A DNA stretch of 64,000 nt from Rhodospirillaceae bacterium (GTDB lineage Bacteria; Pseudomonadota; Alphaproteobacteria; Thalassobaculales; Thalassobaculaceae). The notes below the pieces were generated by a model, which was not told the DNA's origin, did no database searches, and was given only the letters and a program-made list of their open reading frames with translations. Each line of letters opens with the position of its first letter. Position 1 is the stretch's first letter. Position numbers and translations under genes: made by a program. This document shows, piece by piece, positions 26,873 through 27,691 of the stretch. Location of the stretch: positions 2,280 through 66,279 of the forward strand of contig NZGS01000103.1 of the NCBI GenBank assembly GCA_002690995.1, in the 5' to 3' direction.

Positions 26873-27691
26873 ATGCTTAGTTTAAATCTATGTGTCGCCA
26901 TTATACAAACTCTACTATGTTTGGCTGCTGTTGTTGCCATTTCTTTAAAAAGTGAAGACAAAAATGATCTAATGATCTCATCACGTGATCTACAAGTCAA
27001 TAACGAAATCACGACCTATGCAACGTACGACTCGAATGTTATTTTGGGATTGCTTATTGCATTTACCGCGGTTACAGCTTTGTTCCACTATGCATATAGT
27101 TTTAACTGGTGGGGATATAAAAATCGGCTTAAAAAGAAGAACAACTCGTTGCGTTGGATTGAATATAGTATCACTGCAACCGTAATGATTGTTATTATAT
27201 GCTTCGCTTCTGGTACGGTTGAATTGAATGTACAAATTTTAATCGCAGTCATGATTGCCTCTTCGATGATTCTAGGTGATATCATTGAAAAAACAATGGG
27301 AACGCAAGTTGCCAAAATTGGTACTTTTCTAGGATGGTTTTTGGTTCTAGGTGCATGGGCAATCATCATCAAAAATTATGAATTTGCCGCGAGAGGTTTT
27401 ACCCTTCCCCAGTGTGATAAAAAAATTACACCCCCTTCGTTTGTCGCGTATCTTGTGATTATCTTGGTTGTGTTTTACACGTCATTTGGATTTGTCCAGC
27501 TCTACCAAATTTGCCGTCCAAAAACAAAATACGAGCACATTGAAAAGGCCTATTCCATTTTGTCTGTTTTAAGCAAAACAGCACTTGTTTCCATCATGTT
27601 GTGGGGTATATTGTCTCGTGCGCAAGCCATCGATCCCTGCGCCACGGAATCCTATGATTCAACCGAAGTGGCCCTAGAGGCAACCATATAA
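26873..27691 (+). CDS. heliorhodopsin-like seven-helix retinal protein
   Basis: Blocks TALFHYAYS, SLRWIEYSITATVMIVI, ASSMILGDIIEK, FYTSFGFVQLYQ and EKAYSILSVLSKTALVS match the conserved heliorhodopsin blocks as I remember them from HeR 48C12. The Lys is at codon 27575-27577 and the Glu at codon 27161-27163. The start is placed at ATG 26873 (MLSLNLC), because the upstream part of the track ORF overlaps the neighbouring gene. Confidence 0.8.
   Translation: MLSLNLCVAIIQTLLCLAAVVAISLKSEDKNDLMISSRDLQVNNEITTYATYDSNVILGLLIAFTAVTALFHYAYSFNWWGYKNRLKKKNNSLRWIEYSITATVMIVIICFASGTVELNVQILIAVMIASSMILGDIIEKTMGTQVAKIGTFLGWFLVLGAWAIIIKNYEFAARGFTLPQCDKKITPPSFVAYLVIILVVFYTSFGFVQLYQICRPKTKYEHIEKAYSILSVLSKTALVSIMLWGILSRAQAIDPCATESYDSTEVALEATI

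Follow-up and report, generated by a model that had tools for sequence, protein, structure and literature searches.

An intact heliorhodopsin gene on a marine contig filed as bacterial and very probably derived from a giant virus

Background

To which organism does a heliorhodopsin (HeR) gene belong when it lies on a marine contig deposited under a bacterial name, and what would its product do? The question is raised by a 64,000-nucleotide (nt) stretch of contig NZGS01000103.1, hereafter the window, which is recorded as Rhodospirillaceae bacterium and in which the open reading frame (ORF) at 26873-27691 of the forward strand was described in an earlier note, made from the sequence letters without database searches, as a virus-encoded HeR with an intact Schiff-base lysine and counterion glutamate. 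This description is supported here by profile searches, predicted fold, residue conservation and selection. HeRs are widespread, their function is known for few of them, and only a handful of viral HeRs have been characterised. We lean towards the view that the gene encodes a functional HeR of an uncultured marine giant virus, which would act as a non-transporting, slow-cycling photosensor.

Identification of the heliorhodopsin

The coding sequence runs from an ATG at 26873 to a TAA at 27689-27691 and specifies 272 amino acids (aa). These coordinates, as well as five sequence blocks quoted in the earlier note, were all recovered in the translation, and the five blocks of the actinobacterial HeR 48C12 that had been set beside them correspond to the true 48C12 sequence according to Protein Data Bank (PDB) alignments. 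Searched against Pfam, the protein matched the Heliorhodopsin family PF18761 nearly end to end, residues 10-246 corresponding to profile positions 7-241/242 (E=3.3e-26, 92.6 bits for a gathering cut-off of 26.7). No other Pfam family matched it at E<=0.01, the type-1 Bac_rhodopsin family included, and the HeR profile matched exactly one ORF in the window. Using the single sequence as a query, phmmer retrieved only HeRs from the PDB, namely 48C12 (E=1.3e-14), TaHeR (8.8e-9) and Cv06 (entry 9VFC, 6e-5); when the query was a profile combining the protein with 39 relatives, the corresponding values were 1.1e-33, 1.5e-32 and 4e-29. Scanning 1.84 billion cluster representatives with HMMER yielded 966 relatives at E<=1e-3, including 14 at E<=1e-30.

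The AlphaFold2 model, built on a 40-sequence alignment, reached a mean predicted local distance difference test score (pLDDT) of 88 and a predicted template-modelling score (pTM) of 0.85. It exhibits seven long helices and a beta-hairpin in the AB loop, a long AB-loop beta-sheet being a HeR hallmark (PMC7049168). The ten best matches of this model in the PDB, as ranked by Foldseek, were all 48C12 and TaHeR entries, with E-values from 1.6e-9 to 1.1e-7 and template-modelling (TM) scores of 0.68-0.80; type-1 rhodopsins appeared only from E=5e-4, at 9-14% identity. By sequence profile and by modelled fold, the ORF is confirmed as a genuine, intact HeR (type-III rhodopsin).

The start codon at 26873 was retained because the starts of the orthologs agree with it and because longer versions overlap the divergent gene at 26061-26834. 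The orthologs of four related viruses (P0002, P0003, P0013 and P0285) all begin at the equivalent position. Two longer versions were dropped, one from an ATG at 26654 (345 aa) and the other being the NCBI model starting at 26759 (310 aa): both extensions run into the divergent gene, the second by 76 nt, and neither is conserved. Between the divergent gene, on the reverse strand, and the HeR start lies an A/T-rich intergenic spacer of 38 bp (26835-26872), common to both genes, which reads directly as TTATAAAATACTC-A12-TATCTATTATAAA-ATG and is the presumed HeR promoter region.

Retinal site, cavity residues and topology

Residue equivalences were taken from a MAFFT alignment of the window protein with 48C12, TaHeR, VTara8957HeR (sequence from the supplement of PMC9448325) and 58 relatives. 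Residues 12-253 of 48C12 were rebuilt from a PDB alignment and their numbering was checked against 24 published positions. By phmmer, profile and MAFFT alike, Lys235 (AAA, codon 27575-27577) aligns with K241 of 48C12 and Glu97 (GAA, codon 27161-27163) with E107, at the very codons indicated beforehand. The model places Lys235 in helix 7 and Glu97 in helix 3. Glu97 and Ser231 are invariant in 40/40 aligned relatives, and Lys235 is invariant or nearly so. Among the 17 polar or charged residues listed as structurally important (PMC7049168), 15 are identical or conservatively replaced: N16, H80, Y92, N101, R104, W105, Y108, E149, Q213, Q216, Y226, E230 and S237 of 48C12 are identical, and the serines S76 and S111 have become Thr68 and Thr101. 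Thr68, Thr101 and Ser231, the last at the second-counterion position, are the Ser/Thr residues stabilising the lysine and its counterion. The retinal site is intact and the expectation that the protein should bind retinal finds support in silico, the geometry of the pocket around Lys235 and Glu97 being predicted by homology to the 48C12 crystal structure.

The set of residues forming the Schiff-base cavity (N16, H23, H80, Y92, N101, R104, Y108 and E230 of 48C12) is identical at 7/8 positions, H23 alone being replaced, by Gln12. In window numbering, the polar cavity on the cytoplasmic side of the Schiff base is kept nearly complete (N5, H72, Y82, N91, R94, Y98 and E224, with E139, Q209, Q212, Y220 and W95 in addition). 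The Gln at the helix-1 His position is found throughout the close clade and in 11/14 of the next relatives; it may still hydrogen-bond to water. The other differences from 48C12 are Leu for Q26 and, at positions of the retinal pocket, Ile for N138, Ser for M141, Met for I142, Leu for P172, Val for W173, Tyr for F206 and Ser for W246. As P172 is replaced by Leu, helix 5 lacks its pi-bulge proline. The conserved Pro40 of the AB loop is Met34 in the window protein.

Helix limits were assigned by DSSP on the AlphaFold model and can be followed along the forward strand. Helix 1 (aa 2-25; 26876-26947) carries Asn5, equivalent to N16, and Gln12 (codon 26906-26908) in place of His23. It is followed by the AB-loop beta-hairpin (aa 35-40 and 46-52; 26975-27028), predicted to be exoplasmic, and by helix 2 (aa 54-76; 27032-27100) with Thr68 (S76) and His72 (H80, codon 27086-27088). 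Helix 3 (aa 92-113; 27146-27211) contains Arg94, Trp95, the counterion Glu97, Tyr98 and Thr101, and helix 4 (aa 118-140; 27224-27292) contains Gly135 and Glu139 (E149). In helix 5 (aa 145-173; 27305-27391), Leu157 occupies the position of the pi-bulge Pro172 of 48C12. Helix 6 (aa 189-214; 27437-27514) includes Leu198 (27464-27466), Tyr202 (27476-27478), Gln209 and Gln212, and helix 7 (aa 220-249; 27530-27619) includes Glu224 (E230), Ser231 (S237) and the Schiff-base Lys235. Two cysteines were located by alignment, Cys181 in the EF loop (27413-27415) and Cys256 in the acidic C-terminal tail (27638-27640), just beyond which the glycosyltransferase-like fusions described below begin in orthologs. 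They are kept in 5/5 members of the close clade. An exoplasmic disulfide Cys181-Cys256 is possible, and plausible because both residues fall on the predicted exoplasmic side, in a model where the C-terminal tail has a low pLDDT.

Taking helix ends from the model and assuming the HeR orientation, we counted 8 Lys/Arg and 0 Asp/Glu in the cytosolic loops, against 6 Lys/Arg and 13 Asp/Glu in the exoplasmic loops and tail. These charges fit the inverted topology predicted for the protein, with a cytosolic N-terminus and a C-terminus that would be outside or luminal. The charge pattern of 48C12 has been described as "positive-inside, negative-outside" (PMC7049168).

Selection and position among heliorhodopsins

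Between the window gene and its counterpart on contig L001, which shares 96% DNA identity, the non-synonymous (dN) and synonymous (dS) rates are 0.009 and 0.186, respectively, corresponding to a dN/dS of about 0.05. In the comparison with the more distant L028, HeR is 87% identical at the nucleotide level, versus 74% for the syntenic upstream genes. The HeR gene is under strong purifying selection and is clearly maintained, as indicated both by the low dN/dS and by its being better conserved than its upstream neighbours.

Pairwise identities of the window protein, taken over 247 well-aligned columns, are 25.8% (48C12), 25.3% (TaHeR) and 22.3% (VTara8957HeR). A close circle of relatives comprises P0002/L001 (98% identity), P0285/L028 (90%), P0003 (85-88%), P0013 (82%), P0004 (68%) and P0014 (46%). 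The next ring consists of about 20-26 representative clusters at 35-41% identity, most of which have the helix-1 Gln, and the HeRs carried by contigs of giant-virus metagenome-assembled genomes (MAGs) in IMG/VR are 25-35% identical. Structural matches in BFVD amounted to three viral proteins only, including one from a "Megaviridae environmental sample". In a neighbour-joining tree calculated with no bootstrap, VTara8957HeR falls outside the 50-member clade surrounding the window protein. Judged by its sequence, the window HeR belongs to a small subclade, marked by the helix-1 Gln and the Cys pair, which has no characterised member and is 22-26% identical to the studied HeRs.

Predicted function

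By analogy with 48C12, TaHeR and V2HeR2 (PMC7049168, PMC12873467), from which the following mechanism is drawn, HeR would be made in the infected protist and would bind all-trans retinal supplied by the host, as studied HeRs suggest. Light would isomerise the bound retinal, and the Schiff-base proton would pass to a water-filled cytoplasmic cavity lined by Gln12 and His72 instead of the His/His pair. A long-lived late intermediate would alter the surface of the protein and could in this way modulate a partner protein. No net ion transport would be expected, because the exoplasmic half is devoid of carboxylates and because Leu198 and Tyr202 stand at the transporter positions of V2HeR3. Considering the evidence as a whole, a photosensor of this kind is what we hold to be the probable function of the gene.

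The protein had been proposed beforehand as a light sensor or a channel. The sensor is the likelier of the two and the channel is disfavoured, since both residues associated with transport in V2HeR3 are replaced. In that protein, Glu191 is indispensable for current and probably forms a gate with Trp195, which stands where HeRs usually have Phe (PMC9448325). The window protein has Leu198 in place of Glu191 and Tyr202 in place of Trp195, and Glu is found at position 191 in 0/60 of its nearest representatives. A proton transporter or channel of the V2HeR3 type would find a precedent in viral HeRs of one group, which do transport protons (PMC9448325). It would also agree with Gln212, which corresponds to E/Q205 and is likewise Gln in the functional VTara8957HeR, with Glu224, which corresponds to E215, and with an exoplasmic half containing a few more hydroxyl residues (T65, S131, T151 and S240) than that of 48C12. 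However, identity to VTara8957HeR is 22%, the two proteins do not group together in the neighbour-joining tree, and most of the HeR groups tested are without transport (PMC12873467). We consider transport unlikely for the window HeR.

Another possibility is that the protein works mainly as a carotenoid-binding "two-antenna" rhodopsin, with xanthophylls seated at a lateral opening beside the retinal ring. Such an opening has been reported in a preprint for 91% of HeRs and for Cv06 (PDB 9VFC; 10.1101/2025.11.27.691015), the latter being within reach of the clade profile (E=4e-29). The small residues A147, T151 and G206 of the window protein stand at F162, C166 and A210 of 48C12, positions equated with the Cv06 site by our own reading and not by an alignment. 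Against this, the Asn that we equate with the conserved HeR Asn of the site (N207 of 48C12; N255 of Cv06, by reading) is Thr203 in the window protein and is variable within the clade. Moreover, the proposal is docking-based and not established, and it describes light capture rather than an output function. We regard this role as very unlikely to be the main one.

Several points weigh against a slow-cycling photosensor and have to be set beside it. No carotenoid-cleavage/oxygenase, Blh-type or other retinal-synthesis domain was detected when the 57 window ORFs of about 115 aa and longer were scanned with Pfam, in agreement with the earlier note, so the supply of chromophore would depend on the host or on the rest of the viral genome. 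The photochemistry may differ from that of the studied HeRs, because the helix-1 His23 of the proposed proton-accepting region is replaced by Gln and several substitutions affect the retinal pocket. No conserved functional partner is apparent among the neighbours of HeR, the downstream gene varying among related viruses. The residue rules for transport are themselves incomplete, E191 having proved necessary but not sufficient (PMC9448325), and some other mode of transport is conceivable. Finally, retinal binding, the photocycle and the absence of current are all properties that we infer from the sequence and by analogy.

Glycosyltransferase-like fusions in sister viruses

A different output is suggested by relatives in which HeR is joined to, or adjoins, a glycosyltransferase-like (GT-like) domain. 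P0013, which is 82% identical over the rhodopsin part, is 486 aa long, its conserved ...AIDPCATE tail being followed by a domain of about 220 aa. P0013 and three cluster mates of the same length account for about 18 contig entries; the sequence was inspected directly in 13 contigs, which come from different samples. The fusion ORF of this sister virus is located at 10001-11461 in contigs L002-L005 and, with 487 aa, at 9998-11461 in the IMG/VR contig L006, all outside the window. Since it was seen on contigs from different samples and again in L006, the fusion is not an assembly artefact.

No Pfam family matched the fused domain. Its homologs (n=33) are nearly all stand-alone proteins of 200-360 aa, and several of those shown start with a hydrophobic segment that would read as a membrane anchor. 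Invariant motifs are Y-R-L-G-D, H-x-R-x-x-D (HxRxGD in most members), D-x-D-F and G-G, and H-x-R-x-G-D is the nucleotide-sugar motif of fucosyltransferases. The domain was modelled as the stand-alone homolog P0293 (pLDDT 88), for which the top 21 matches in the PDB were all POFUT1 fucosyltransferases. The best E-value was 1.3e-5 and TM scores were of 0.3-0.42, low values because the domain is smaller than POFUT1.

A second arrangement is found in the lineage of contigs L028-L030, whose HeR is 90% identical to that of the window. There, a GT25 (Glyco_transf_25) gene begins 2 nt past the HeR stop on 16 contigs; in L028, HeR occupies 10001-10840 and GT25 10842-11495. In P0291, HeR and GT25 form a single 532-aa ORF on one 2.1-kb contig. 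The predicted exoplasmic C-terminus of HeR would be on the side where type-II anchored glycosyltransferases carry their catalytic domain, so that the geometry of the fusions agrees with the inverted topology. The only HeR fusions named in a 2021 survey are prokaryotic, with MORN repeats or zinc ribbons at the N-terminus (PMC8612252), and we found no C-terminal enzyme fusion to a heliorhodopsin in literature searches.

The HeR subclade might be viewed as a light-responsive module for exoplasmic glycosyltransferases, which it would anchor or orient or whose glycosylation it would make light-dependent, the window copy being an unfused version acting in trans. In favour of this reading is a POFUT-like (GT-B) domain fused to HeR on many contigs, elsewhere stand-alone and in several homologs apparently membrane-anchored, with POFUT1 as the sole match among the top 21 PDB hits and an invariant H-x-R-x-x-D. 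The GT25 gene abutting HeR on 16 contigs and fused to it on one, and a HeR C-terminus lying on the side expected for the domain if its homologs are type-II proteins, point the same way. However, the window HeR has no such domain, and neither a counterpart of the fused domain nor one of GT25 was found in the window. The ORF downstream of HeR (27701-28345) is an orphan that is broken in the nearest relative, and the P0004 lineage has no glycosyltransferase adjoining HeR. Giant viruses are rich in glycosyltransferase genes, so adjacency could be due to chance. The POFUT1 TM scores are low, and the GT25 fusion was seen on a single 2.1-kb contig. As an account of the window HeR, such a module appears very improbable; the window copy being unfused, the fusions are a lead rather than a result. 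If true, this role would mean light-regulated glycosylation during giant-virus infection, and a real fusion or adjacency would be the first clue to an exoplasmic output domain of a heliorhodopsin.

Origin of the contig

The window has a GC content of 37% (32-41%) and a coding density of about 92%, and no tRNA was found in it. Its D5-like primase-helicase (44441-47194) combines AEP_C962R (E=5.8e-34; African swine fever virus C962R type), PriCT_2 and D5_N domains and has 297 homolog matches; D5-like primase is used as a marker of Nucleocytoviricota (PMC11721082). A weak match to the Pox_A22 resolvase was also detected. Other genes of the window encode a DUF2738 protein, two PCNAs, ERCC4, the small subunit of ribonucleotide reductase (RNR), Hsp70, two FtsH-like proteases, a mitochondrial carrier, a papain-like (C1) protease, several RING and U-box proteins and a MORN protein. 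The counterpart of ORF 60827-61324 is annotated as HMG-box in a related contig. Extending contigs possess Evr1/Alr and SWIB genes about 5-7 kb past the right-hand end of the window, and a sister contig carries the RNA polymerase (RNAP) subunit Rpb1. The major capsid protein, packaging ATPase A32, VLTF3 and PolB were found neither in the window nor in the 10 kb past either end (about 84 kb in total). The contig very probably belongs to Nucleocytoviricota.

The more precise assignment of the earlier note, a Mimiviridae-like genome, went beyond the evidence: Nucleocytoviricota markers are present, but the upstream 60 nt of 65 ORFs show no enrichment of AAAATTGA, the early-promoter octamer of mimivirids (16 occurrences versus 22 +/- 4.5 expected). 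A Mimiviridae-like origin is plausible, Hsp70, the mitochondrial carrier and the DnaJ/eIF-1A present in a relative being only suggestive. In a de novo k-mer scan of the upstream regions, GATTTAAA was found upstream of 6 ORFs, the divergent neighbour of HeR among them, versus 0.2 expected, and may be a lineage-specific promoter element; otherwise the scan returned A/T-rich words only.

A mirusvirus (Mirusviricota) has to be weighed as the host genome because HeRs are far commoner in these viruses, being present in 64% of mirusvirus genomes versus 5% of Nucleocytoviricota (Gaia et al., PMC10132985). The window encodes C1 peptidase, Holliday-junction resolvase, RNR, PCNA and ubiquitin ligases, which all count as core functions of mirusviruses or as functions shared with them (PMC10132985), and no double-jelly-roll capsid gene is found in the window or its flanks. 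On the other side stands the full-length D5-like primase-helicase. It is among the eight hallmarks of Nucleocytoviricota, and no more than four of these (PolB, RNAP A, RNAP B and TFIIS) are reported to be shared with mirusviruses (PMC10132985, PMC11721082). TBP, histone H3, trypsin-like or M16 peptidases and HK97-type virion genes were undetected by Pfam in the window ORFs, about 84 kb having been inspected. Mirusvirus triplex, portal and terminase likewise gave no Pfam match in these ORFs, mirusvirus virion genes not being recognisable in Pfam. We judge a mirusvirus origin quite unlikely, and retain Nucleocytoviricota.

The identical HeR protein is present twice in GenBank, as MAI14429.1 of "Rhodospirillaceae bacterium" and as OUX67988.1 of "bacterium TMED178", both named "hypothetical protein" and both on a 73,871-bp contig; we found no paper on either accession or on TMED178. 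That the gene is bacterial, as these labels have it, is extremely improbable, given eukaryote- and virus-type genes throughout a tRNA-free window of 37% GC, no close HeR relative in 185,579 prokaryotic species genomes (GTDB, one genome per species), prokaryotic HeRs reported from monoderms only and not from Proteobacteria (PMC8612252), and one contig binned into two differently named MAGs. The presence of the contig in two bacterial MAGs is a binning error, which spreads a wrong taxonomy to about 70 proteins.

Gene neighbourhood

Upstream of HeR, the genes are ordered as follows: a protein of about 600 aa, a 115-aa single-pass membrane protein (25740-26087), a tail-anchored protein of 257 aa encoded on the opposite strand (26061-26834) and HeR. 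The two small genes had been noticed beforehand as encoding membrane proteins, and hydrophobic segments are indeed present in both, a single one at aa 54-78 in the former and a C-terminal one at aa 222-256 in the latter. This upstream order is kept in L001 and L028. Synteny with the relatives stops precisely where HeR ends, at its 3' side: an orphan ORF and then a GTP cyclohydrolase I gene follow in the window, and GT25 follows in L028. In the virus of contigs L002-L006, HeR is at a different locus, adjoining RNAP Rpb1, and the P0004 contig exhibits yet another HeR neighbourhood.

The orphan ORF (27701-28345, 214 aa) is in the reading frame of HeR, from which it is separated by the TAA and three codons (S-I-L). 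It has no Pfam match, no transmembrane segment, no similarity to glycosyltransferases and no IMG/VR relatives, near-identical cluster mates being its only relations. In the 96%-identical L001, it is a pseudogene, showing a changed poly-A length and the loss of 143 bp between short TGTCAA repeats. The idea that it could be a hidden HeR domain was dropped on these grounds (no Pfam match, no IMG/VR relatives, a pseudogene in L001). The full-length GTP cyclohydrolase I (E=3e-73) lies at 28452-29117 on the opposite strand, about 760 bp downstream of HeR. Its product may serve in making folate or biopterin or in a DNA modification of the 7-deazaguanine type; no QueC/D/E genes were found among the scanned window ORFs.

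In the sister virus, the HeR fusion gene is separated by about 8 kb from a photolyase gene (DPRP and FAD_binding_7) at 19298-20796 of the reverse strand in L002/L003. A neighbourhood of HeR and photolyase has been reported for ChrysoHV (10.1101/2025.06.17.660233) and also for bacteria; no photolyase was found among the scanned window ORFs.

Further genes of the window and of the contigs extending it were recorded. Proteostasis and transport genes are clustered at 804-2363(-), 2751-3425(+), 5535-7097(+) and 7078-8973(-), where two FtsH-like AAA+/M41 proteases flank Hsp70, with a mitochondrial carrier and a PQ-loop protein nearby; the Hsp70 and FtsH pair is also close to HeR in the sister virus (L002). 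Genes for glycan synthesis, at 14287-17988(-), 36423-37301(-), 40837-41784(-) and 10202-10816(-), comprise a 1233-aa GT2 plus GT1-type protein, a UDP-glucose/GDP-mannose dehydrogenase, an NAD-dependent sugar epimerase/dehydratase and a small protein that matches a DXD-type glycosyltransferase region weakly and below threshold. In the 711-aa product of an ORF at 56163-58298(-), DUF6940 is fused to a class I/II aminotransferase domain. On L020 (17166-21224), about 5-10 kb past the left end of the window, we found an HMGL-like/LeuA-dimer synthase, DHDPS and a faint DAP-epimerase match. Such amino-acid-biosynthesis-type genes are unusual for a virus and could reflect auxiliary metabolism or a chimeric join. 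A Rieske/VanA_C-type oxygenase is located near HMG-box genes in two related viruses, at 11068-12111 of L023, just past the right end of the window, and at 4976-5938 of L033. Searches of PDB sequences with the large unannotated ORFs 23889-25703 and 49628-51799 and with the DUF2738 protein returned nothing useful.

Significance

As HeRs have already been published for coccolithoviruses, mimivirids, giant-virus MAGs and mirusviruses, the find is solid but fairly ordinary. It adds to this family an intact, strongly conserved member of an unstudied subclade, in which the proposed proton-accepting region naturally has Gln for His, and these properties make it a reasonable candidate for expression studies. 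MAI14429.1 and OUX67988.1 are mis-assigned: the contig should leave the bacterial bins and the gene should be annotated as a viral heliorhodopsin, a correction that also removes an apparent exception to the monoderm-only rule for prokaryotic HeRs. Beyond this correction of the records, the added value of the analysis lies in the placement of the Gln-bearing subclade, in the argument against a channel function and in the lead provided by the glycosyltransferase fusions.

Comparison with studied heliorhodopsins

Among solved proteins, 48C12 (PDB 6SU3/6SU4/6UH3) is the best match in both sequence and structure (Foldseek E=1.6e-9, TM 0.73/0.77). The window protein resembles it in its seven helices, its AB hairpin and its charge asymmetry, and keeps the residues equivalent to K241, E107, S237, H80, N101, R104, W105, Y108, E149, Q213, Q216, Y226 and E230. 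It differs from this bacterial protein in being viral, in sharing only about 26% identity with it, in an N-terminus one residue long and in the replacement of H23, Q26, P172, W173, N138, F206 and W246. TaHeR, from a Thermoplasmatales archaeon (PDB 6IS6/7U55), has the same fold (Foldseek E=1.7e-8) and is a non-transporting HeR with a hydrophobic exoplasmic half; it is about 25% identical, the set of substitutions being the same as against 48C12. Cv06 of Chromera velia, the sole solved eukaryotic HeR, is reached by the clade profile at the E-value given above. It is the weakest of the PDB matches to the single sequence (E=6e-5) and differs by its length of 317 aa and its long N-terminus (PDB 9VFC; 10.1101/2025.11.27.691015).

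The HeRs of mimivirids (ChrysoHV, cPacV-1605), of giant-virus MAGs and of mirusviruses are, like the window copy, HeRs of marine protist viruses, none of them being closer than 35% apart from those of the immediate sister viruses. V2HeR3 and the VTara HeRs, which are proton transporters of the coccolithovirus groups VHeR3/4 (PMC9448325), are likewise encoded by giant viruses, share the Lys and the Glu, and have equivalents of Gln212 (E/Q205) and Glu224 (E215). The window protein belongs to another clade, with 22% identity to VTara8957HeR, and has Leu198 and Tyr202 instead of Glu191 and Trp195. V2HeR2 of the coccolithovirus EhV-202 (PMC12873467), likened here by its description, differs in keeping both histidines (H23 and H87) and in coming from another virus family. 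It is a viral HeR with no reported transport, a long-lived O intermediate and a proposed action on a partner protein, which is the behaviour predicted here for the window HeR.

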